Part shown: positions 2,997 to 21,761 of the stretch, piece after piece | How the letters are laid out: each line of letters starts with the position of its first letter | How positions within the stretch are numbered: position 1 is the stretch's first letter | Assembly (NCBI GenBank): GCA_963577165.1 | Contig: CAUYYY010000001.1 | Location: 1-26,959 of the forward strand | From: Planctomycetota bacterium | Lineage (GTDB): Bacteria; Planctomycetota; Planctomycetia; Pirellulales; CAUYYY01 | Reading direction: 5' to 3' | DNA length: 26,959 bases | Made by a program: the position numbers and the translations under genes | The notes under the pieces: model-generated | Database searches by the model: none | Told to the model about the DNA's origin: nothing | Seen by the model: the letters and a program-made list of their open reading frames with translations, nothing else

Positions 2997-3051
2997 GTAG
3001 GGAACGCATTCCACTCCAGCACAATAGAATGCTGCGGAGGGCGTTCCCTAC
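2997..3051. repeat. GTAG-type palindromic element (GTAGGGAACGC ... GCGTTCCCTAC)
   Basis: 11-bp perfect arms 2997-3007/3041-3051 with a further imperfect inner stem; starts 8 bp after the paralog 2 stop. Confidence 0.8.
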
Positions 3052-3081
3052 GGTCCTCGCTTTCCGCCCGGACAACGGTTC

Positions 3082-3090
3082 TGCTATAGT
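3082..3090 (+). promoter_or_regulatory. Candidate extended -10 promoter for ruvB (TGcTATAGT)
   Basis: TGn plus TATAGT ~115 bp upstream of the ruvB ATG; -35 is weak. Confidence 0.45.
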
Positions 3091-3122
3091 ACGGGCCATT
3101 CGTCGATCTCTCGGTATCGGCT

Positions 3123-3156
3123 GGGTGGCGGGGAAGGAGCCTCAGCGACGGCCCCG
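3123..3156 (+). repeat. REP-like family A, copy 2
   Basis: Identical to 1936-1969; lies 49 bp upstream of the ruvB ATG. Confidence 0.92.
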
Positions 3157-3205
3157 AGATGTAGCCTTGTGTCGCATTCATCTTTTACTGTTCGGGCTTC
3201 CGACC

Positions 3206-4225
3206 ATGACCCGCGAACCGATCCTTACTGACCAAGCCGACCTCTCCGAGGAGGATCGCCGCCTGCGCCCAACGCGGATGCAGGACATGGTCGGGCAGGC
3301 GGCGGTCTACGAGCGGCTGATGATCGCCGTCGAAGCCGCACAGAAACGGGATGAGCCGCTCGGCCATATCCTGTTCGATGGGCCGCCCGGACTCGGCAAA
3401 ACGACGTTCGCCACCTGCATTCCACGCGAACTGGGCGTCCCTATACAAATCGCCAGTGGGGCCGCACTCGACGCGCCGAAGGACCTGCTGCCGTATCTGA
3501 CCAATGCCGAAGAACGCTCGGTCCTATTCATCGACGAGATCCACCGGCTTCCCAAGGCGGTTGAGGAGTTCATGTATCCGGCCATGGAGGACTTTCGCAT
3601 CGACATCACCTTGGGCGAAGGCATCAACGCCCGAACCGTCAACATGTCGCTACGGCCATTCACGCTCATCGGAGCGACGACCCGTACCGGACTGCTTTCA
3701 GCGCCATTGCGTGACCGTTTTCAGATGCGCGAGCACTTGGACTTCTACAGTGTCGAAGAGCTGAGCGAGATCGTCCGCCGCAACGCGAGTAAACTCGAAG
3801 TAACGATGGACGAGGAGGCCGCCGTAGAGATCGCCCGCCGCAGCCGCGGCACGCCCCGAGTGGCCAACAATCGCCTCCGCTGGGTGCGTGACTACGTGAC
3901 GGCCCGAGCCGACGGCCATATTCAAAAATCGCTCACCGAGGAGGCCCTGAAGATGCTGAGCGTCGACATCCTCGGGCTCGACGGCCAAGACCGAAAATAT
4001 CTGGAAACCATCCTGCGAGTCTTCCACGGTGGCCCGGTCGGTGTGGAAGCGGTTGCCCACACGATGAATCTTGCCGTGGATACGCTTACCGATGAAGTGG
4101 AGCCTTTCTTGTTACGCAGCGAATTGGTCGTTCGCACACCCCGTGGGCGGACGCTCACGCCGGCTGGCTTCGCACATCTCGGGGCGACGCCGCCCGACGA
4201 GTCCGAGAATCGCCAGTTGTTTTAA
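3206..4225 (+). CDS. ruvB: Holliday junction branch migration helicase RuvB
   Basis: Walker A GPPGLGKTT, Walker B LFIDEIHRL, FTLIGATTRTGLLSAPLRDRF, SRGTPR, RTPRGR. Start taken at ATG 3206 (MTREPIL). Confidence 0.97.
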   Translation: MTREPILTDQADLSEEDRRLRPTRMQDMVGQAAVYERLMIAVEAAQKRDEPLGHILFDGPPGLGKTTFATCIPRELGVPIQIASGAALDAPKDLLPYLTNAEERSVLFIDEIHRLPKAVEEFMYPAMEDFRIDITLGEGINARTVNMSLRPFTLIGATTRTGLLSAPLRDRFQMREHLDFYSVEELSEIVRRNASKLEVTMDEEAAVEIARRSRGTPRVANNRLRWVRDYVTARADGHIQKSLTEEALKMLSVDILGLDGQDRKYLETILRVFHGGPVGVEAVAHTMNLAVDTLTDEVEPFLLRSELVVRTPRGRTLTPAGFAHLGATPPDESENRQLF

Positions 4226-4234
4226 GCGGTTCCA

Positions 4235-4262
4235 AAGCCCAGGGATGGCCATCCCTGGGCTT
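4235..4262. repeat. Perfect 28-bp palindrome AAGCCCAGGGATGGCCATCCCTGGGCTT
   Basis: Exact self-reverse-complement beginning 9 bp after the ruvB stop; no U-tract. Confidence 0.85.
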
Positions 4263-4265
4263 AAA

Positions 4266-4382
4266 GCGAGCGGCAGATGAAAATTTACTCAAATACAAGC
4301 ACGACGCGCAAGCGAGTGAGCAGGTGCGGTTGCTCTGGACTTGCTTGCGCTGCGTGCTGGTAATATCTTTTCCGCCGCTCGC
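4266..4382. repeat. Nested inverted-repeat element (family C core TAC[A/C]AGCACGACGCGCAAGCGAGTGAG)
   Basis: Family C arm 4294-4320 with imperfect inverted arm 4339-4362, enclosed by GCGAGCGGC (4266-4274)/GCCGCTCGC (4374-4382). The family C arm recurs at 8442-8468. Confidence 0.8.
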
Positions 4383-4401
4383 CTAACCCAATACCATCCC
4401 A

Positions 4402-4430
4402 TTGACGCACCTTGCGGCAAAGCCTAGGAT
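4402..4430 (+). promoter_or_regulatory. Sigma70-type promoter for rpmF-fab operon
   Basis: TTGACG (4402-4407), 17 bp, TAGGAT (4425-4430). Confidence 0.65.
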
Positions 4431-4546
4431 GGCCGGCTTGGTGCCTACGTAAGTTGCGGCCCTGTCAAGTGTTCGGTGCGAGCACCGGCTGCGGCAAGAG
4501 AGTGATTCCAAGCGGCGATAGACAGAATACAGATTCGGGTGATCCC

Positions 4547-4726
4547 ATGGCTGTACCCAAACGCAAACATTCCAACTCGCGATCTGGCAAACGCCGCTCG
4601 CACAACGCTCTGAAACCGATTGAACTCCAGCATTGTCCGAAGTGCAGTACGCCTCGGCCCTCGCATGTCGTCTGTCCCAACTGTGGCCACTATATGGGCC
4701 GCGTCGTGGTGGAGGCAGAGGAGTAA
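4547..4726 (+). CDS. rpmF: 50S ribosomal protein L32 (zinc-binding form)
   Basis: MAVPKRKHSNSRSGKRRSH ... CPKC ... HVVCPNCGHY; 59 aa; typical position upstream of fab genes. Confidence 0.97.
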   Translation: MAVPKRKHSNSRSGKRRSHNALKPIELQHCPKCSTPRPSHVVCPNCGHYMGRVVVEAEE

Positions 4727-4784
4727 CTCGGCTGCTGTCTTACCCGCACGAGTCCGCAGGATCTTTTCCTCAGGAAAACTGCAT

Positions 4785-4866
4785 GGGTGGCGGGGAAGGA
4801 GCCTCAGCGACGGCCCCGATGGGAGAATGCGCATCGGGGCCGTCGCTGAGGCTCCTTCCCCGCCAC
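4785..4866. repeat. REP-like family A doublet (REPIN-like hairpin)
   Basis: Forward copy 4785-4818 and inverted copy 4835-4866 form a perfect 35-bp stem (4787-4821/4832-4866) with a 10-nt loop. Confidence 0.93.
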
Positions 4867-4976
4867 GCGTCTGTGCTCTCCCACACAAGTTTTCACCTAG
4901 GTCCGTGACGCCCATGCTTCTGAAGCTCAGCTCGCAAAAAGCCCGAATCGCACGACCACGACAAGGATCCTCCGTT

Positions 4977-5900
4977 TTGAGCAAGATCGCCTTACTTTTT
5001 CCCGGTCAGGGTGCCCAAACGGTCGGCATGGGCAAGTCGCTTTGCGACCGTCTGCCCGCGGCGCGCGACCTGTTCAATCGTGCTGCGGACATCCTTGGCT
5101 ACGACCTGGCGCAGCTCTGCTTTGAGGGGCCGGAGGAAAAACTCAATTCGACCGTCCATAGCCAGCCGGCTCTGTTCGTGACCAGCTTGGCCGCTCTGGA
5201 GCTGTTGCGTGAAGAGGCCCCGGACGTCCTCGGGGCCGTTCATGCTGTTGCCGGTCTGAGTCTGGGCGAGTATACGGCGTTGGTCTTCGCAGGCGCGATG
5301 GATTTTGATTCCGGTTTGCGGCTCGTCCAGCAGCGCGGCCAGGCGATGCAGGATGCGGCCGATGCCGTGCCGAGCGGGATGATCGGCGTTTTGGGTCTTG
5401 AGCGTGATCAAGTTGAGCAGCTCTGTGATCGGGCCGCCGAAGGCGAGACGCTGCGGATCGCCAATTTGCTCTGTCCCGGAAATATCGTGGTTTCCGGCGA
5501 AAAAGGAGCCTGCGAGCGTATCGCGAAATTAGCGGAAGAAGTCGGTGCAATGCGGACCATTCCACTTGCTGTGGCCGGTGCGTTCCATACGCCGCTCATG
5601 CAGGCAGCCGTCGAGCGACTTTCGGCCGCACTCGCTGAGGTCAAAATGGTGCCGCCCAGGGTGCCCGTGATCTCCAACGTCGATGCCCAGCCACACACCG
5701 ATCCGGAAGAAATCCGGGAATTGCTTGTACAACAAGTCGTCAAACCAGTATTGTGGGAAGACTCGATGCGACGGTTCATCGGCGAGGGAGTCGCCGGGGA
5801 CCCCATCGATCAATTCTACGAAGTCGGTCCGGGCCGCGTGTTACGCGGGCTATTAAAACGAATCCATCGCAAGGTTCCCTGTGAAAACGTAACAGGATAA
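4977..5900 (+). CDS. fabD: Malonyl-CoA:ACP transacylase
   Basis: LFPGQGAQ, GLSLGEY nucleophile elbow, AGAFHT, VSNV-like ISNVDA, EVGPG. Start TTG 4977 (MSKIALLF). Confidence 0.96.
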   Translation: MSKIALLFPGQGAQTVGMGKSLCDRLPAARDLFNRAADILGYDLAQLCFEGPEEKLNSTVHSQPALFVTSLAALELLREEAPDVLGAVHAVAGLSLGEYTALVFAGAMDFDSGLRLVQQRGQAMQDAADAVPSGMIGVLGLERDQVEQLCDRAAEGETLRIANLLCPGNIVVSGEKGACERIAKLAEEVGAMRTIPLAVAGAFHTPLMQAAVERLSAALAEVKMVPPRVPVISNVDAQPHTDPEEIRELLVQQVVKPVLWEDSMRRFIGEGVAGDPIDQFYEVGPGRVLRGLLKRIHRKVPCENVTG

Positions 5901-5903
5901 TTC

Positions 5904-6668
5904 ATGATGTCCGAATCCAATTTTACGGTTGATCTGGGCGGCCAAACTGCCATCGTGTCCGGTGCCTCGCGTGGCATCGGTCGCGGCATTGCGTTGGCTC
6001 TCGGTGCGTCCGGTGCCCGCGTGGCTTGCGTCGCACGTAACGTGGAAAAACTCAAAGAAACAGCCGATGCCATCACCTCCGCGGGTGGCACAGCGGATAT
6101 TTTCGAGTGCGACGTGACCGATGGAGCGGCGGTTGAATCGCTGTTCGAGGCCGTCACCGCCAAGTGGGAAAAGGTCGATATTCTGGTCAATAATGCCGGA
6201 ATCACTCGCGACACGCTGGTTCCGCGGATGTCCGACGAGCAGTGGGACGACGTCATCCAGACCAATTTGCGTAGCGTGTTTCTGATGACGCGAGCCGCTT
6301 CGCTTCTCATGATGCGGACACGCAGCGGCAGGATTATCAACATATCGAGCGTTTCAGGCCTGATCGGCAATCCCGGCCAAGGTAATTACTCCGCATCCAA
6401 AGCGGGAGTGATCGGTTTTACACGCACCGTGGCCAAGGAACTGGCAAGTCGAAAAGTGACCGTCAACGCCATCTGTCCTGGCTTCATCGCCACCGAGATG
6501 ACCGATGCCTTGGGACCGGCTGTTTTAGACGTAGTGAAAAAGCGGGTGCCAGCCAAGAGGTTAGGGCGGATTGAGGAGATCGCCGACGCCGTACTGTTCC
6601 TGGCCAGCAATTCCGCCGGTTATATCACCGGCCAGGTGCTGACCCTGGACGGCGGCCTCACGGCGTAA
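5904..6668 (+). CDS. fabG: 3-oxoacyl-ACP reductase
   Basis: SDR motifs SGASRGIG, NNAGITRD, NYSASKAG, PGFIATEMT; position between fabD and acpP. Confidence 0.95.
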   Translation: MMSESNFTVDLGGQTAIVSGASRGIGRGIALALGASGARVACVARNVEKLKETADAITSAGGTADIFECDVTDGAAVESLFEAVTAKWEKVDILVNNAGITRDTLVPRMSDEQWDDVIQTNLRSVFLMTRAASLLMMRTRSGRIINISSVSGLIGNPGQGNYSASKAGVIGFTRTVAKELASRKVTVNAICPGFIATEMTDALGPAVLDVVKKRVPAKRLGRIEEIADAVLFLASNSAGYITGQVLTLDGGLTA

Positions 6669-6683
6669 GACCTGAACAAAATG

Positions 6684-6751
6684 CCAGCACCCCGGCTGCT
6701 TCAAACAGACAAAGGTGCTGGAAAGTCACTCCGAAAAGCAGCCGGGGTGCT
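6684..6751. repeat. Inverted-repeat element family B, copy 2 (36-nt spacer)
   Basis: AGCACCCCGGCTGCT 6686-6700 and AGCAGCCGGGGTGCT 6737-6751, same arms as 722-785 with an unrelated spacer. Confidence 0.9.
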
Positions 6752-6794
6752 AATTCGACTCGCACTAGACACCAGGGCGAAAAACGTTTATACC

Positions 6795-6824
6795 TTGACC
6801 TCACTTGCTTAAGTGCTCTAGCCT
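6795..6824 (+). promoter_or_regulatory. Candidate internal promoter for acpP-fabF
   Basis: TTGACC (6795-6800), 18 bp, TAGCCT (6819-6824); alternative -10 TAGAAT at 6861-6866. Confidence 0.4.
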
Positions 6825-6874
6825 AGTGGGCTTAACCTCGCCAACAACGAGGGGTTTTTGTAGAATTTCAGGGC

Positions 6875-6899
6875 GGGAAACCGATGTGACCGGTTTCCC
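6875..6899. promoter_or_regulatory. Inverted repeat GGGAAACCG-N7-CGGTTTCCC upstream of acpP
   Basis: Perfect 9-bp arms, ~16 bp upstream of the AGGAGG ribosome-binding site; not seen elsewhere in the window. Confidence 0.5.
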
Positions 6900-6930
6900 C
6901 TGGCGATTGATTTACAGGAGGACCTTGGAC

Positions 6931-7170
6931 GTGGCGTCAGTTCAAGAAAGAGTGACCGACATTGTGGCTGAGCAGCTGGGCGTCGATCGAGACAAGGTAA
7001 CTGCGGATACATCCTTTGTTAACGATCTGGGTGCCGACTCGCTCGACACCGTCGAGTTGGTCATGGAGCTAGAAGAAGAATTCGATATCACGATACCCGA
7101 CGAAGCTGCCGAGAAGATTCAAACCGTCGGCCAGGCGGTTGAGCATATCGAATCCCACGTTAAGTCTTAG
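6931..7170 (+). CDS. acpP: Acyl carrier protein
   Basis: [22 protein letters not shown] phosphopantetheine motif; GTG start behind AGGAGG. Confidence 0.98.
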
Positions 7171-7181
7171 CGGACTCGCAC

Positions 7182-8435
7182 ATGAAACGACGTGTTGTCG
7201 TCACAGGCATTGGTGCGGTTACGTCGCTGAGCTTGCAAGTCGAGGACCTCTGGAAGAGAATTCTAGCGGGTGAGAGTGGCGTTCATGCTCTGCGCTTGTT
7301 CGACACGGCGGAGTACAAGGTCCGCTTTGCCGGGGATATTTACGATTGGTCCCCGTCGGACGATTATTTCTCGCCGAAAGACGCCAGACGGATCGACCGC
7401 TTCGCGCAGTTCGCGATGGTCGCCGGCATCGATGCGGTGCGCGACTCGGGCATGGACTTCTCCCGCGAGAACCCGTTCCGTTGCGGGGTCATCCTGGGGT
7501 CGGGGATCGGCGGCCTCAACGAAATTGAGACCCAGGTCGAGCGACTACTGACCAAAGGGCCTGAAAAGGTTTCGGCCTTTACGGTTCCCAAGCTCATGGT
7601 TAACTCCGCGAGCGGACACGTCTCGATCCTGTACGGCCTGCGCGGACCGAATCACGCCATCGTAACCGCTTGTGCCAGCGCCACCAACGCGATGGGCGAC
7701 GCCTTGAAGGTGATCCAGTACGATGAAGCCGATGTGATGATCACCGGAGGATCCGAGGCGGCGGTCACGCAGATGGGCCTTAGCGGCTTCGCCAATATGA
7801 AGGCGCTCTCGATGCGGAACGACAACCCGGCGGTAGCCAGCCGGCCCTTTGACGCCGATCGGGACGGCTTTGTCCTGGCCGAAGGTGCCGGGCTGCTGGT
7901 CTTTGAGGAATTAGAACACGCCAAAGCACGCGACGCTCGGATCTACGCCGAAGTTCTGGGCTTCGGTGCCAGTGCCGATGCCGGGCATATCACCAAGCCC
8001 GATGCCGAAGGGGTCGGGGCGGCCAAGGCGATAAGCAATGCATTGGCCAACGCGAAGCTCGCGCCCGAGGCGGTCGACCACATCAACGCCCACGGCACGA
8101 GTACTCCGTTGGGCGACAGAGCGGAGACGGCCGCCATGAAGACCGTTTTCGGCGAACATGCCTATCGCATCGGCATTTCGAGCACCAAGAGCCAGTTGGG
8201 GCACACCTTAGGAGCAAGCGGCGGCATCGAGATAGTGCTTACGATGCTCGCTCTGCGGGACCAAGTCTGTCCGCCCACGATCAATTACGAAACGCCCGAA
8301 CCCGGCTGCGACCTGGACTATACGCCCAATGAACCCAGAGAGCGAAAAATTGCCGTCGCCATGAGCAACAGCTTTGGCTTTGGCGGTCACAACGCCTCCA
8401 TTCTCGTCGGCCAGCTACGCGACGGCACCGCGTAA
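7182..8435 (+). CDS. fabF: 3-oxoacyl-ACP synthase II
   Basis: Intact Cys-His-His triad (TACAS, NAHGTST, LGHTLGA), ASRPFD, SNSFGFGG. Confidence 0.97.
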   Translation: MKRRVVVTGIGAVTSLSLQVEDLWKRILAGESGVHALRLFDTAEYKVRFAGDIYDWSPSDDYFSPKDARRIDRFAQFAMVAGIDAVRDSGMDFSRENPFRCGVILGSGIGGLNEIETQVERLLTKGPEKVSAFTVPKLMVNSASGHVSILYGLRGPNHAIVTACASATNAMGDALKVIQYDEADVMITGGSEAAVTQMGLSGFANMKALSMRNDNPAVASRPFDADRDGFVLAEGAGLLVFEELEHAKARDARIYAEVLGFGASADAGHITKPDAEGVGAAKAISNALANAKLAPEAVDHINAHGTSTPLGDRAETAAMKTVFGEHAYRIGISSTKSQLGHTLGASGGIEIVLTMLALRDQVCPPTINYETPEPGCDLDYTPNEPRERKIAVAMSNSFGFGGHNASILVGQLRDGTA

Positions 8436-8441
8436 GGCAAA

Positions 8442-8585
8442 TACCAGCACGACGCGCAAGCGAGTGAGTCGTAGGGTGGGCCTCGTGTTACTCGGCCCAC
8501 CCTATATAAAACCCGCGTTTATCTGTGTCCATCCGCGGTTCCATCCCTTCCGCCTTTGCCCCAGTGTCTGAACCCTGAACCCTGA
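8442..8585. repeat. Mosaic of four short repeat types after fabF
   Basis: Family C arm 8442-8468; GTAG-type hairpin GTAGGGTGGGCC...GGCCCACCCTA 8471-8504; inverted family D unit ATCTGTGTCCATCCGCGGTTC 8521-8541; heptamer tandem CTGAACC x2.5 at 8568-8585. Confidence 0.8.
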
Positions 8586-8627
8586 TTTCTGCTAGCACTG
8601 ATCGCATCACATTCGCCGGCATCGCTA

Positions 8628-8656
8628 TTGCCGCGCTGGGCCGGGCTTCCTATACT
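8628..8656 (+). promoter_or_regulatory. Sigma70-type promoter for the 415-aa hypothetical
   Basis: TTGCCG (8628-8633), 17 bp, TATACT (8651-8656); AAGGAGG precedes ATG 8704. Confidence 0.6.
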
Positions 8657-8703
8657 CCCCGCCCGCGCAAAATCAACTGTCGACTCAGCAAGGAGGCTGA
8701 CGG

Positions 8704-9951
8704 ATGTTTGTCCGTAGACTGTTCGTTTTCACCGCTTCGGTTTCGCTGTCCATGGTGCTGGTCGGATCGTCGTTTTCCCAAGAGACGAGTTCTCAAGAGA
8801 CGGGCCAATGGCGGGCACCCCATCTCACCGACGATGAAAAAACAAACGACGGCGGTGATTCCAAGATCAAGCAAGCAAGCGGTGAAGAGCCGGCCGGTTC
8901 CCCATTGAGTCCGATCAAAGCACCGGCCCGGCAGCCGATCGCTCGCGTGACCAAAGGCTCGGGCACACTGCCGAACGACCACGGCCAGGTATGGCGAGAT
9001 TATGACATCACGCCCTACACGCTTCGTGTGACTTCCACCAATCGGCCGGAGCAAGCCATCGTCGATTGGATCTTGCGCGAGACCGGTTACGAAGCGTGGC
9101 ACAGTGAACCTTTGGGCCTACTGAGCGCCAGCAAGCGTAAGCTCAGCGTTTATCACACGCCCGAGATGCAAGCGGTGGTGGCCGATATTGTCGATCGCTA
9201 CGTCGGCAGCCAGGCGGAGACGCACGCTTTCAGCCTGCGGATTGTCACGATCGGCAATCCGAATTGGCGATCGAAAGCGATGCGGCTGATGAAACCGGTT
9301 CCTGTCCAGTCGCAGGGAGTTGAGGCCTGGTTACTGGCGAAGGAGAACGCCGCGCTCTTGCGGTCGGAGCTTCAGAAACGAACCGATTATCGTGAACACA
9401 GCTCACCGCACCTTCTGATCAACAACGGCCAGTCAACAGTTGTCTCGGCGATTCGTCCTCGAAAATACGTTCGCGGCATCATCCCGCGTGCAGACGCCTG
9501 GCCCGGATTCGAATCGCTGACCGGTCAGATCGACGAAGGCTATTCGTTGCAATTCAGCCCACTCGTATCCCTCGATGGACAAACTGTCGATGCGGTGATC
9601 AAGCTACGGCTTTGTCAGGTGGAAAAAATGCTTCCCGTCATGCTTGACGTCGCCACGCAGGTGGCGCCGCGTCAGCGGACACAGGTTCAAGTGCCACAAG
9701 TGACGCAGAGCAATCTGCACGAGCGATTCCGATGGCCGGTCCACGATGTGCTGCTTCTGAGCATGGGCGTGATTGCAACGCCGGGCCCCGCACGAGGCAA
9801 TTCATTCGCGGCCAGCCTGGCGATGCCAACCGCACCACCGCGGGCCGACGCTTTGCTCTTTGTCGAATGTAAGGGACACGTTGTGGGCGGGTCGCATAGC
9901 AACGCCTCGCAGGCGGCTCGGCCAGCCGGTGACTACACCCGGCGATATTAG
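8704..9951 (+). CDS. Exported hypothetical protein (signal peptide, low-complexity linker, possible secretin N-domain-like fold)
   Basis: Strong RBS, hydrophobic N-terminus, 415-aa open frame with its own promoter. Fold guess rests on pattern only (YDITPY ... LSVYHTPEMQAVVADIVDRYV). Confidence 0.75.
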   Translation: MFVRRLFVFTASVSLSMVLVGSSFSQETSSQETGQWRAPHLTDDEKTNDGGDSKIKQASGEEPAGSPLSPIKAPARQPIARVTKGSGTLPNDHGQVWRDYDITPYTLRVTSTNRPEQAIVDWILRETGYEAWHSEPLGLLSASKRKLSVYHTPEMQAVVADIVDRYVGSQAETHAFSLRIVTIGNPNWRSKAMRLMKPVPVQSQGVEAWLLAKENAALLRSELQKRTDYREHSSPHLLINNGQSTVVSAIRPRKYVRGIIPRADAWPGFESLTGQIDEGYSLQFSPLVSLDGQTVDAVIKLRLCQVEKMLPVMLDVATQVAPRQRTQVQVPQVTQSNLHERFRWPVHDVLLLSMGVIATPGPARGNSFAASLAMPTAPPRADALLFVECKGHVVGGSHSNASQAARPAGDYTRRY

Positions 9952-10153: not shown

Positions 10154-11470
10154 ATGAATCCCCCGGCGAAGCGGCGTGTTGTTATTACCGGAATGGGTCT
10201 GATTAGCCCGTTGGGTCATTCGCCCGAGGATTTGTATGCTGCGCTGGTCGAGGGCCGTAGCGGTGTCGGCCCGCTCGAGCGCGTTCCGTCCGACCATTTG
10301 TCCACCTCGGTCGCGGCCGAAGCCCGTGAGTTTGACGCCAGCATCGATCAGTTTGGCTCGCTCAGTAAGGATCGCAAAAAGGCCGTCCGCAAGGCGCTCA
10401 AGGTCATGTGTCGCGAGACGCAGATGGGGGTTGCCTCGGCCCAGTTGGCCGCGGCCGACGCCGGATTTGTGGACGGTGGCATGGATCCGGAGCGGACCGG
10501 CGTGTTGTTCGGCTCCGACTACATGCTCACTGAGCCGGAAGAATTTGCGGCGGGCGTCCGAAAATGTGGCAGCGATGGGAAGTTCGATTACTCACGATGG
10601 GGCAGCGAGGGGCTCGACCAGATGTCGCCGCTATGGCTGCTCAAGTACCTGCCGAACATGCCGGCCAGCCACATCGCAATTTTTAATGACCTCCGCGGTC
10701 CGAACAATTCGATTACCCATCGCGAAGCGGCAAGCAATCTGGCGATCGGCGAGGCGATGCACATCATCCAGCGAGGCAGCGCCGACCGGATGCTGGCCGG
10801 GGCTACCGGCACTCGGGTACACCCGATGAAGACCGTCCACGCCGTGCAGACCGAACATCTAGCACGTGGTAACGGCGACCCCACCCGGGCCAGCCGACCG
10901 TTCGATCGTGATCGAACGGGCATGGTTATCGGCGAGGGCGCGGCGACTGTTGTGCTCGAAGAGCTGGAAATAGCTCGTAAGCGTGGAGCCAAGATCTACG
11001 CCGAAGTCGTCAGCGTCGGGTCTCGAATCGTGCTCGATCGCAATGGTCAGGCCCATCGCGATGTGGCGATGGCCGGGGCGATGCAGTCGTGCCTGGAACG
11101 AGCAGGCATGAGCCCGGACGATGTCGGACACATTCACGCCCACGGTCTAAGCACGCCCCAAAGCGACATCGAGGAGGCTCGGGCTATTCGCCAGGTCTTG
11201 GGTGATGCGGCCGACCGCACACCGGTCGTGGCGGCCAAGGCCAACTTTGGCAACCTCGGCGCTGGTAGTGGTGTGGCGGAGCTGATTGCCAGCGTCATGG
11301 CGCTCGGCAGCGGCAAGCTCTTTCCGGTGCTCAACTACCAGACGCCCGACCCCGAATGTCCGATCGCGGCGGTCACCTCGGCCGACGTGCCGGCGGGCGG
11401 CAGCTTTTTGAATCTGAGCACGACACCACAAGCCCAAGCTGCCGTGGTGCTGGTCCGGGCAATGGAGTAG
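10154..11470 (+). CDS. FabF-like ketosynthase-fold protein lacking the catalytic Cys (Glu-His-Asn)
   Basis: RRVVITGMG, ASRPFDRDRTGMVIGEGA and HIHAHG align with the fabF in this window. TACAS becomes HREAA, LGHT becomes FGNL, GFGG is absent. Start ATG 10154. Confidence 0.9.
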   Translation: MNPPAKRRVVITGMGLISPLGHSPEDLYAALVEGRSGVGPLERVPSDHLSTSVAAEAREFDASIDQFGSLSKDRKKAVRKALKVMCRETQMGVASAQLAAADAGFVDGGMDPERTGVLFGSDYMLTEPEEFAAGVRKCGSDGKFDYSRWGSEGLDQMSPLWLLKYLPNMPASHIAIFNDLRGPNNSITHREAASNLAIGEAMHIIQRGSADRMLAGATGTRVHPMKTVHAVQTEHLARGNGDPTRASRPFDRDRTGMVIGEGAATVVLEELEIARKRGAKIYAEVVSVGSRIVLDRNGQAHRDVAMAGAMQSCLERAGMSPDDVGHIHAHGLSTPQSDIEEARAIRQVLGDAADRTPVVAAKANFGNLGAGSGVAELIASVMALGSGKLFPVLNYQTPDPECPIAAVTSADVPAGGSFLNLSTTPQAQAAVVLVRAME

Positions 11471-18801: not shown

Positions 18802-20442
18802 TCATTCTTTGCCGATGTGTCGCACGTCGGGCCAATACTTCGCGAAGTCAAAATCGGGACTGTTGTCCATGTCATGACACTGCATACACATCGTTGAGAC
18901 ACGGCCGACGACTCCGTCCGGAAGCTTGCCCTCGGCTTCTCCCTCGACGAGGCGAATTCGCATGGCGTTACGACGTCGCTCGAGCCCTTCATCGTCCACA
19001 TCGGTGTCGCCCTCTTCGGCGGCGACGTGCCGCGAGCCCGGACCGTGACAGTTCTCGCAACCATTGGCCCGCAAATGGGCCGTTGTTTCCATGCCGCGGA
19101 AACCCGATTTGAACGGAAAATACTTTTGCGGTTCCCAGCCGGTCGCATGACAACTGAGACATTCCGGATCGAATTGACGCGGCGGGTCGAGCTTGACAAG
19201 AGTCGCCGTCGCGTGCGCGTGGGGCGTCTTCTTGAACACGGCCGCCGCCTCCGTATGACATTCGCCACAGGCTGCTGAACCGACGAACGAGCGACCGCTC
19301 GGATGGGGCGAGCCCGCGAGGCCCAGCGAATCGAAACCGATCGTTTCCAGTTCCTTTTGATACCGCACCATCATCTGCTGCATCTCCGCCGAGTCGTCAA
19401 AACGATGATCGAGCGGCACTCGCTGATACCGCCACGGTGTCTCCTTGTCGTCGTACAACCCGATCACGGCCACATACATGCCTTTGTGTCCCACCTCGAC
19501 CAGCAGCGTCTCTCCTGCATTGATCTTCTCCGGCATGTTGGGCGGCTCGTCCGCGCCGCCTGCTGTCACGATGATATCAAATTCCGGAAACTGTCTGGCG
19601 AGCTTACGTGACTCGCGCGGGTCGGCGTGCGAGAGCAGAATCATCACGTCCGATTTCTCGTCGAGCGCCGGGACGACCTTGCGCAGCGCTTCGGCCGGAT
19701 CCGTGATTTCCAAGTCTTGGTTGTTAATTTTCGCTTTTTCGGCGGCCCCCAGCACACAGGTGATCCCAATGCGGCGTCCGCCCACCGTGACCACGCGCGT
19801 CGGCTCGACAAATCCGCTGTCGAGGCTAAACAGCCCCACGTTGGCCGATACGTACAGGCTGCGTCCGTCCGGCAGATTCACCGCCACACCGACCAATTCG
19901 TCGGTCGGCAGACGCAAGTCCTGTGGCCCGAACCCCACCGCGTGGTAGCCGATCTCACTGAGCGCACCGATGGCCGTGCGAAACTTGATGACCGCCTGCG
20001 GTCCGTACCGGCGAACTTGGCCGCCCAAGTCGACCAGCGCCAGCGGCCAGCCTCGATCGCCAAGTTGTTTTACCAGCGTGTGACGCCGTTGCAGGCCGCC
20101 TTTCTGATTGTCGAGTCCCGCGCAGCCGCACGGTTCTAGATACCCGAGCTGCTCTCCCGAGATCAATAGCGCGGCTTGAGGCCGTGGCCAATCGACAAAG
20201 ATCGGTCCATTCCGCTCGATCGGATCTATGAGTTTCTTTTCAGCGGGCTTCTTCTTCGTTGCGTCGTCGTACGGTCCGTCCGCGGCAAGGTCTTCCGCCA
20301 GGACAACCGATTCGGTGGTCTCGGTCCCTGGATGAAAGGTCGCGGCGACCAGTGCCGACCCGATCAGTCCGACCGTCCACGCGATGCGACTCCGGGTCAA
20401 TCTTCCAAGCATCCCTCTTCTAAACGCCCTTCTTCTACGCAT
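18802..20442 (-). CDS. Exported fusion: 5'-nucleotidase-like domain plus tetraheme c554-like cytochrome
   Basis: N-terminal hydrophobic segment; GYLEPCGC...KGGLQRR motif; four CxxCH (CGECH, CLSCH, CENCH, CMQCH). Start could be ATG 20412. Confidence 0.85.
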   Translation of the reverse strand: MRRRRAFRRGMLGRLTRSRIAWTVGLIGSALVAATFHPGTETTESVVLAEDLAADGPYDDATKKKPAEKKLIDPIERNGPIFVDWPRPQAALLISGEQLGYLEPCGCAGLDNQKGGLQRRHTLVKQLGDRGWPLALVDLGGQVRRYGPQAVIKFRTAIGALSEIGYHAVGFGPQDLRLPTDELVGVAVNLPDGRSLYVSANVGLFSLDSGFVEPTRVVTVGGRRIGITCVLGAAEKAKINNQDLEITDPAEALRKVVPALDEKSDVMILLSHADPRESRKLARQFPEFDIIVTAGGADEPPNMPEKINAGETLLVEVGHKGMYVAVIGLYDDKETPWRYQRVPLDHRFDDSAEMQQMMVRYQKELETIGFDSLGLAGSPHPSGRSFVGSAACGECHTEAAAVFKKTPHAHATATLVKLDPPRQFDPECLSCHATGWEPQKYFPFKSGFRGMETTAHLRANGCENCHGPGSRHVAAEEGDTDVDDEGLERRRNAMRIRLVEGEAEGKLPDGVVGRVSTMCMQCHDMDNSPDFDFAKYWPDVRHIGKE

Positions 20443-20489: not shown

Positions 20490-21761
20490 TCATGTGCCGA
20501 CTGCAAATCGGACCCTGATACGCAAATCGTGGGTTTGCGGATGGTTTGTCTTTAGAATGATTTCGCCCAGGCCACCCTTTTCCAGGCCACCCTGTTGAGA
20601 TCCCATATGAATCATCGGAGGTGTTCCCCGCGGAATCTCAATGGTGAGCGGTACTCGGACGACCCGGCCACCTTTGATCTCTTTGTGCTCGCCCAGCGTT
20701 ACTTGCAGCGTGGGTGGCCATACCTTACCGATCGTGATCTCAATTCCACGGGCGTGCTCGCCTCGCACATAAACCGCCAGCTGCGCCCGTTTTCCCTGAT
20801 CGGAGTCAACCGTGCCCAGCGACAAAATCCCCCGGTCCCTGCTCCAGCCCGATCCGACAATCGACAGCTCGCCCAAGATCCGACCACGAATCGGAATTAC
20901 GTAGGCGTCCTTGTCAACCACATTGGTCGTGAATTCCAATTCTTGCTCGAAGCTACCAATCGGCAGCCCGGGCTTGACCGTCAGCCGCAGCAGTTTGCCT
21001 GCTTTTGCCTGGAACGCCTGCAACTCATCGCTCGGAATGTTCTGCTCAGAAATCTCAAAGAACTTAGCCGTGTCGGCGCGCAGAAAACGGTGATTGAGGA
21101 TATGAAAATCGTCCTGGGTGAACGATAGCAATCGCACCTCCGCCGTCTTTTCGGTCCCGGCCAGGATACTGCTGTACACGAAATCCATCGGTTCGATACG
21201 CATCGCATTAACAATCCAACCGGTCACGGTCAATTGGACACGAGGAGACACAGGATCATTTGTCAGAATAGTCGCCGTCTGTCGGAAATCGATCCCCTGG
21301 GCCTTGGCCATCCATTCCAACGTGACCATCGCCAACCCGCCTGGCGGAATTTCATCCTCCGCCAATTTGCTCAGAGTACATTTACAGGTCGTATCGCCCG
21401 CCACGAGCTTCAGCGGCGCATCGCCTTCGTTCGTAAAAACGAATTCGTGGGTCTTCTTCGTTCCACGGTCCATGCTGCCAAAATCGTATTCCGGCCGATC
21501 GACCACAGTGCGTGGCTGCGGGGCGCCGGCCGGAGCGAGGTCGGGTTGGCGAGCATCTCGGCTCACCGAGAGCAATTGCTCAATGTTCTGCGAACTGCCA
21601 AACCAACCAAGCTCGACTGCGCTGCTGCCAAAGCCGATGGTTGCACCCACGAGTATCGAGCTGAAAACGACAGCACTAGTCTTCATAACCGCTTGTCCTA
21701 TATTATTTTGTCGAACGTCTGCATGCTCTTGATTGTATCGCGACAGCACGTCAGTGGTCAA
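20490..21761 (-). CDS. DUF1573-like membrane-anchored protein with tandem Ig-like domains
   Basis: YDFGSM ... FVFTNEGDAPL ... TCKCT ... IPPGG ... LTNDP pattern; N-terminal hydrophobic segment. Start TTG 21761 or ATG 21686. Confidence 0.8.
   Translation of the reverse strand: MTTDVLSRYNQEHADVRQNNIGQAVMKTSAVVFSSILVGATIGFGSSAVELGWFGSSQNIEQLLSVSRDARQPDLAPAGAPQPRTVVDRPEYDFGSMDRGTKKTHEFVFTNEGDAPLKLVAGDTTCKCTLSKLAEDEIPPGGLAMVTLEWMAKAQGIDFRQTATILTNDPVSPRVQLTVTGWIVNAMRIEPMDFVYSSILAGTEKTAEVRLLSFTQDDFHILNHRFLRADTAKFFEISEQNIPSDELQAFQAKAGKLLRLTVKPGLPIGSFEQELEFTTNVVDKDAYVIPIRGRILGELSIVGSGWSRDRGILSLGTVDSDQGKRAQLAVYVRGEHARGIEITIGKVWPPTLQVTLGEHKEIKGGRVVRVPLTIEIPRGTPPMIHMGSQQGGLEKGGLGEIILKTNHPQTHDLRIRVRFAVGT

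Follow-up and report, generated by a model that had tools for sequence, protein, structure and literature searches.

What role can be assigned to a FabF paralog in which the catalytic cysteine has been replaced by glutamate? The question is posed by a 26,959-nucleotide stretch of DNA (hereafter the window; contig CAUYYY010000001.1 of assembly GCA_963577165.1) from the draft genome of a marine planctomycete (2.25 Mb, 386 contigs, 72% complete; G000 in our numbering), whose forward strand carries, in order, ruvA, ruvB, rpmF, fabD, fabG, acpP, fabF, a gene for a secreted protein, the paralog, nusA, infB and rbfA. A sequence-only reading of the window had suggested that the paralog either makes acetyl-acyl carrier protein (acetyl-ACP) primer in place of FabH, or pairs with FabF to set chain length. 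The comparisons described below point to a different ketosynthase (KS) as partner, and the reading we favor, with confidence that is about even, is that the paralog is a chain-length factor (CLF)-like heterodimer partner of a KS encoded on contig C115 of the same genome, whose relatives we call C115-type KSs, within a second acyl-chain system.

The open reading frame of the paralog contains neither a frameshift nor an internal stop, and its product matches the Pfam families ketoacyl-synt (1.2e-36) and Ketoacyl-synt_C (2.5e-22). Against TIGR03150, the fabF equivalog model, it scored 282.5 bits, below the cut-off of 493.75, compared with 600.9 for the neighboring fabF, to which it is 35% identical by pairwise alignment. 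The FabF-type Cys-His-His triad and GFGG loop are absent from the paralog, since the three catalytic positions are occupied by Glu191, His330 and Asn367, and a Thr/Pro/Gln stretch takes the place of the FGFGG gate loop. The residue calls and the lost gate given in the sequence-only reading proved exact when the alignment was repeated and the codons at 7671, 10724, 11141 and 11252 were verified, and its description of a conserved fold in an undisturbed frame was borne out as well: the AlphaFold2 model has a mean predicted local distance difference test score (pLDDT) of 91.5, and Foldseek aligned the full two-lobed thiolase fold of the β-ketoacyl-ACP synthases (KAS) to FabF structures with template modeling (TM) scores of 0.82-0.88. 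As modeled, the paralog is an intact KAS II fold with a remodeled active site.

To place the paralog among its relatives we relied on IQ-TREE runs and on unrooted groupings. All Cys-less proteins of the Asp/Glu type, including that of the window, formed one clade (Shimodaira-Hasegawa-like approximate likelihood ratio test, SH-aLRT, 99), here termed KS-prime (KS'), in nearly all members of which the Cys position is acidic. The C115-type KSs formed a separate clade, with support of 93, or 99 when the divergent downstream KSs of family f53 were included, and the housekeeping FabFs made up a third group. The window protein was found in a subclade of dispersed genes nested, with support of 93-94, within a grade of Cys-less proteins encoded in tandem with a KS, and this dispersed subclade splits into A, which contains the window protein and almost always has Glu-His-Lys-Asn, and B, which is more variable. 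The window protein bears the marks of the clade, namely the acidic residue at the Cys position, the shared insertions, and the invariant Lys80, Lys83 and Pro-Leu-Trp-Leu-Leu. Within its basic segment Met85 is also clade-invariant and Arg87 nearly so, and its helix-loop-helix, which shares with C115-type KSs an insertion of ∼14 residues that is absent from FabF, terminates in an invariant Pro-Leu-Trp-Leu-Leu..Pro-Asn-Met motif. Taken with gene order, the trees show that the paralog originated as the first, Cys-less gene of a tandem KS pair, and the simplest history would be one in which the KS' gene left the cluster in an ancestor of the lineage and was then duplicated.

Two lines of evidence were set aside. 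A large FastTree tree, when its root was placed on the long branch of KS_C30, had catalytic KSs nested implausibly within the Cys-less ones, and the proteins P0147, P0197 and P0256, considered as KS'-KS fusions, are instead KS-then-degenerate-KS proteins of another family, uninformative on the pair. In family f53 (loci L032-L034, L038 and L039), both tandem KSs keep Cys-His-Lys-His; the upstream one falls in a group that still has the Cys and is sister to the Cys-less clade, and may represent the state before the nucleophile was lost. An additional dispersed, Cys-containing KS from this sister group is carried by families f105-f109.

Of the catalytic KSs in the window genome, that of C115 is the nearest to the paralog (240 bits, compared with 174 bits for the adjacent FabF); it has an intact Cys-His-Lys-His and GFGG. 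Its gene lies directly downstream of genes for a FabA-like hotdog protein, a divergent ACP and a second FabA-like hotdog protein. The system is without an enoyl reductase and its cluster has no KAS III gene; a ketoreductase (KR) is present in many relatives. A fuller cluster, in the order hotdog, (KR), ACP, hotdog, Cys-less KS, C115-type KS, was found at 10 loci in other families of the phylum; a further 7 loci with a Cys-less KS immediately upstream of a C115-type KS came from f105-f109, families within the class of the window genome. At L031, L040 and L053, the gap between the tandem KS frames extends little beyond the stop codon. The window genome and genomes G190, G070, G173 and G270 contain the hotdog-ACP-hotdog-KS arrangement without the KS' gene, and their Cys-less paralogs lie elsewhere, two in each of the last four and one found in the window's own incomplete genome. 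The KS' and KS genes have also become unlinked independently in G001 and in family f43. At locus L114 (G241, contig C118, 3476-4799), three separate frames together make up the Cys-less gene that precedes the C115-type KS, reflecting either a pseudogene or assembly errors in this 69%-complete genome.

The two clades also occur together. Profiles of both were applied to 301 genomes drawn from across the phylum. A C115-type KS (at least 589 bits) was detected in 40 of these, all of which also carried a gene of the Cys-less clade, present in pieces in one 69%-complete genome; about 250 of the genomes gave only FabF-level hits to both profiles. Among sampled genomes of the window's class, the Cys-less family was present in 81 of 81 and the C115-type KS in 80, the single miss being an 85%-complete assembly of 1,360 contigs. 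Because the sampled genomes are related to one another, we read this co-occurrence as a pattern rather than as a statistic.

A precedent for such a pair comes from anammox bacteria, in which amxFabF2 and the Cys-less amxFabFmut form a KS/CLF-like obligate heterodimer; decarboxylation of malonyl-ACP requires the heterodimer, which makes acetoacetyl-ACP and has a tunnel lined by residues of the dead subunit (bioRxiv 10.64898/2026.05.19.726425). The same preprint attributes heterodimerization to the charges of the helix-loop-helix, which is acidic in the KS and basic in the dead subunit, and describes how, in KAS dimers, the helix corresponding to residues 222-233 of the paralog packs against the partner's helix-loop-helix. 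The Cys-less subunit studied here would pair with the C115-type KS through the extended helix-loop-helix motifs, and would help to shape the acyl tunnel of the KS and the surface on which ACP docks. This pair may also prime itself by decarboxylating malonyl-ACP, since the C115 cluster is without a FabH-type starter.

As a sequence-level proxy for the preprint's argument, made without coordinates, we compared net charges at the corresponding positions. The helix-loop-helix had a net charge of -5 to -6 in C115-type KSs, also where the partner gene is unlinked, and 0 in housekeeping FabF; in these two groups the opposing helix was not informative. In the Cys-less proteins the helix-loop-helix charge was -3 throughout, and the opposing helix carried +1.2 in subclade A, +1.7 in the tandem partners and -1.4 in subclade B. 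A model of the paralog in complex with the C115 KS reached an ipSAE (interaction prediction score from aligned errors) of 0.96, a score that is not partner-specific, compared with 0.00 for the best control; the mark applied to such models is reached by 51 of 78 solved complexes and by 2 of 108 mismatched pairs. On the KS side the modeled interface involves the acidic helix (residues 147-159), and on the paralog side residues 81 and 84, 157-169 and 224-233. The complex model gives weak support, because solved structures include many KAS dimers and the test is blind to the family member supplied. The C115 KS appears the likelier partner because it is the nearest catalytic relative, shares the insertion, co-occurs with the Cys-less family and has the acidic interface motif. 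The earlier proposal of a chain-length factor is supported in kind by the tandem-pair ancestry, but the partner it named, FabF, is probably not the right one. Ancestry, co-occurrence, the retained fold and the loss of both nucleophile and gate are shown by these data; dimerization, the choice of partner and any decarboxylase function are inferred.

The proposal that the paralog takes the place of FabH began from a fab cluster without fabH, and at the locus this description is correct: the cluster reads rpmF-fabD-fabG-acpP-fabF, and both plsX and fabH are absent locally. The rpmF gene, encoding ribosomal protein L32 (4547-4726, + strand), is immediately 5' of fabD, the usual intervening plsX and fabH being missing here. 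However, the genome does encode fabH, on contig C332 beside pepF (345.7 bits, cut-off 292.1). Nor do carriers of the paralog generally lack the gene, as fabH exceeded the cut-off in 76 of the 81 class genomes, and had E<=1e-40 in 80 of them, with the Cys-less family in every one. We therefore rejected the replacement of FabH, and consider it highly improbable that the paralog initiates housekeeping fatty-acid synthesis in its stead; the absence of fabH from beside fabF in a draft genome carries no information about initiation. MadA/MadB (YiiD-type), which are reported to allow FabH-independent initiation through malonyl-ACP decarboxylation, have an unrelated fold (hotdog/Gcn5-related N-acetyltransferase), and bear only on this rejected bypass.

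Conservation of the substituted site was evaluated at two depths. In an alignment of the window protein with its 120 best database homologs (60-93% identity, 121 sequences, those named being from Pirellulales or Planctomycetia), Glu was found in 120, His in 121, Lys in 121 and Asn in 120, and 93 of the 438 columns (21%) were equally conserved. In a search of 1.8 billion cluster representatives for more distant homologs, the Cys position was Glu or Asp in nearly all Cys-less relatives, in contrast to the first His position, where many of these proteins had Gln, Cys, Tyr, Glu, Asn, Ala or Thr instead, and to the last catalytic position, which was mostly, not always, Asn. The first His was also changed (to Gln, Tyr, Cys or Glu) in about seven divergent members of the window's own subclade, and tandem Cys-less members showed combinations such as D-H-T-Y, D-C-R-Y, E-F-K-N and E-A-K-H. 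Nevertheless, no combination is commoner across the clade than E/D-H-K-N, which was already present in tandem members of f105 and f109. Across 32 aligned clade members, 32 columns were invariant. Judged from these alignments, the hallmark of the family is an acidic residue at the Cys position, and the His/Asn pair appears dispensable. The conservation of Glu, His and Asn that the sequence-only reading proposed as a check is thus found among close homologs, but a catalytic His/Asn dyad, which it likened to the decarboxylation pair of FabH-type enzymes, is weakened, because both residues drift in divergent relatives.

These patterns bear on a catalytic alternative, in which the paralog is a malonyl-ACP decarboxylase, as a homodimer or within the heterodimer, that feeds acetyl-ACP to the second ACP system, with His330 and Asn367 polarizing the thioester and Glu191 acting as the acid. 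The near-invariance of all four residues among close homologs, the prevalence of E/D-H-K-N and its presence in tandem members, the lack of a KAS III gene in the second system's cluster, and the malonyl-ACP decarboxylation by the anammox heterodimer are all in its favor, and KS domains with a Cys-to-Gln change are known decarboxylases. However, the His is lost in divergent members of the subclade and His/Asn drift widely among the tandem proteins, the Phe-containing GFGG loop, which promotes decarboxylation in KAS I/II, is gone, and known KS decarboxylases have Gln or Ser where this protein would set a carboxylate beside that of the malonyl group; a decarboxylase is an unlikely identity for the paralog. 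Partnership with the housekeeping FabF, or modulation of primary type II fatty-acid synthesis as a chain-length or regulatory factor, seems similarly doubtful. It draws on gene order, fabD-fabG-acpP-fabF-(unknown)-paralog-nusA in the window and L002, fabD-acpP-fabF-paralog in G070, G173 and G361, and fabF beside the paralog in G095, a synteny that spans two families at about 44% identity. This adjacency is missing, however, in G190, G306, G316, G343, G352 and G355, which belong to the same order, and in the window the genes are separated by 268, 202 and 453 bp. Moreover, the FabF is canonical, with a neutral helix-loop-helix and no insertion, so that its motif is mismatched with the extended one of the paralog, and ancestry favors the other KS. 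That the paralog is a functionless relic, a decaying duplicate, can be proposed from the loss of the nucleophile, but is the least credible possibility, given the intact frame, the confident structure model, the presence of the family throughout the class sample, the retention of orthologs down to about 44% identity, and the invariant columns.

The CLF-like reading with a C115-type KS as partner is itself opposed by several observations. Charge complementarity is partial, since the paralog's own helix-loop-helix is still -3, and a model with FabF as partner, or of a homodimer, would probably reach the mark too. Relatives have two dispersed Cys-less paralogs per genome, between which the data do not distinguish which one, or whether both, serve the C115-type KS. 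The gene stands beside the housekeeping fab operon in the window, L002, G070, G095, G173 and G361 (the last four from family f3), a neighborhood that hints at primary fatty-acid synthesis, and the strict conservation of Glu-His-Lys-Asn among close relatives fits a catalytic role as well. There is a small chance that these residues form a working carboxylate-for-thiol site that processes malonyl- or acyl-ACP, or that the paralog is a chain-length or regulatory subunit of FabF; either would represent a new mode of control of bacterial lipid synthesis, present class-wide in Planctomycetota.

Comparison with the anammox pair, which is probably that of PDB 9s5h, reveals both likeness and difference. 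Like the paralog, amxFabFmut is a FabF paralog without the catalytic Cys from the same phylum, and the anammox system, like the C115 cluster, brings together an active KS, a hotdog dehydratase and an ACP of its own. We located the pair in two f34 genomes as ACP, hotdog, KS (Cys-His-Lys-His) and KS (Val-Asn-Lys-Glu), matching the preprint. The dead subunit thus has Val-Asn-Lys-Glu where the paralog has Glu-His-Lys-Asn, the KS gene comes first in anammox bacteria whereas the Cys-less gene comes first in the planctomycete tandems, and the window's paralog gene, unlike the anammox one, is unlinked from its presumed partner. The paralog is also less similar to the 9s5h chains than to ordinary FabF. 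Joining amxFabFmut to the Asp/Glu clade was rejected by the approximately unbiased (AU) test (p=0.004), although long branches call for caution; because one clade is rejected, the two Cys-less lineages are probably analogous and of separate origins. Two FabF paralogues of R. baltica, RB4527 with Glu and RB3714 with Asp in place of Cys, were previously reported as table entries only, uncharacterized, and were grouped with the anammox paralogs (Rattray et al., 2009, PMC2649909), a grouping to which the AU test gives no support. They probably correspond to the two dispersed subclades, with orthology unconfirmed, and a literature search found no later work on RB4527 or RB3714. Thus the Cys-less paralogues of R. 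baltica and, more recently, the anammox dead-subunit pair with its ladderane-linked genes were already known; what is new is the link to the tandem KS'-KS cluster, the move of the gene out of it and its duplication, the occurrence throughout the class, the distinctness from the anammox lineage, and the generality of the acidic residue but not of the His/Asn pair.

Polyketide synthases (PKSs) offer well-known examples of catalytically dead KS paralogs that guide an active partner, and the CLF of aromatic PKSs has a conserved Gln at the Cys position. That Gln is not found here, the residue being Glu in the paralog and Glu or Asp across the clade, and the paralog's sequence is nearer to FabF than to PKS CLFs. 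Type II PKS CLFs, such as that of the actinorhodin KS/CLF (PDB 1tqy), are inactive KS homologs that heterodimerize, line the tunnel and are usually encoded in tandem with the KS; in the present family the tandem arrangement is seen in relatives and the gene is unlinked in the window's genome, and the heterodimer is modeled only. The gene set of the highly reducing type II PKSs (Iga11/Iga12, ApeO/ApeC) resembles the combination of ACP, KR and two hotdogs without an enoyl reductase, but ApeC is half-size and the paralog is full length. KSQ loading domains and the Cys-to-Ser KSs of β-branching cassettes have, like the paralog, a KAS fold with a replaced nucleophile, and are proposed to convert malonyl-ACP to acetyl-ACP. 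At the nucleophile position they have Gln or Ser, and neither of the two His residues nor the gating loop has been lost, a pattern from which the paralog departs with Glu, with Asn for the second His, and with the loss of the loop.

Coordinates of the paralog, its functional segments and related genes (positions are those of the window unless a contig is named)
Feature	Position	Strand	Basis or remark
Canonical housekeeping fabF, Cys-His-Lys-His and GFGG	7182..8435	+	TIGR03150 600.9 bits
Secreted protein, 415 aa, signal-peptide-like N-terminus	8704..9951	+	Conserved upstream neighbor of the paralog in several genomes
Cys-less ketosynthase paralog, 438 aa	10154..11470	+	ATG 10154 to stop 11470; planctomycete Asp/Glu KS-prime clade, subclade A
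Basic segment, residues 70-92, ∼8-residue insertion relative to FabF	10361..10429	+	Alignment, charge analysis, complex model
Helix-loop-helix dimerization/tunnel motif, residues 120-170	10511..10663	+	Alignment, charge analysis, complex model
Glu191 (GAA), catalytic Cys position	10724..10726	+	Aligns with FabF Cys164 (TGT 7671); codon verified
Helix, residues 222-233, net positive in subclade A	10817..10852	+	Charge analysis, complex model
His330 (CAC), first catalytic His, kept	11141..11143	+	Alignment; codon verified; varies in divergent relatives
Lys362 (AAG), counterpart of the conserved KAS I/II active-site Lys	11237..11239	+	Codon verified
Asn367 (AAC), second catalytic His position	11252..11254	+	Alignment; codon verified
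C-terminal segment, FabF Phe-Gly-Phe-Gly-Gly gating loop replaced	11402..11443	+	Alignment
C115-type KS, 431 aa, intact Cys-His-Lys-His and GFGG	G000:C115:3284-4576		Own-genome KS survey

Transcription of the locus was considered from two sources. A scan for promoters and terminators between 8300 and 12000 gave a few consensus matches, near chance level, and operon structure is not inferable from it. Fragments of the paralog at 100% identity are present in seawater metatranscriptome libraries, which is compatible with expression of the gene without proving it: the contigs cover parts of acpP/fabF, of the unknown gene and of the paralog, at low depth, carry-over of DNA is possible, and none of the contigs bridges two genes of the locus.

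The product of the unknown gene, the secreted protein upstream of the paralog, has no Pfam or NCBIfam match, and an ortholog gave a Secretin match below threshold (E=0.13). The gene precedes the paralog in the window, L002, G190, G343 and G352. The AlphaFold2 model of the protein is poor (pLDDT 48), with small alpha/beta domains followed by long beta-hairpins. Right after the fabF stop, a stretch of ∼32 bp (8437-8470) occurs inside many otherwise unrelated marine metatranscriptome and metagenome contigs, with a depth of 112 in one run and loose ends on both sides, which suggests a short repeated element, possibly one of the window's REP-like (repetitive extragenic palindromic) repeats. Downstream of rbfA, the genes for a multihaem cytochrome c554/c7-like protein (18802-20442, - strand) and a DUF1573 Ig-like protein (20490-21761, - strand) have no relation to the paralog.

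The genome contains further KS genes. On contig C30 (∼5300-9750, locus L012), a KS paralog of 436 aa with an intact triad is flanked by a homolog of OleD-like 2-alkyl-3-oxoalkanoate reductase and a phytoene-desaturase-like gene, a neighborhood that recalls clusters discussed for polyunsaturated hydrocarbon synthesis. Contig C75 ends within another open frame (3005-8011, >1,669 aa), which encodes at least 2 KS domains of a PKS- or Pfa-like kind.

Because the Cys-less genes can lose their linkage to the partner gene, annotation pipelines label them merely as "beta-ketoacyl-ACP synthase". The comparisons made here set them apart as a separate lineage, marked by an acidic residue, that extends to every genome sampled from the class (81 of 81) and to part of the remaining phylum, and that belongs to a second ACP/dehydratase/ketosynthase system. 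Since the lipids of planctomycetes are unusual and poorly understood, the KS'/KS pair offers a handle on an uncharacterized lipid or polyene pathway.

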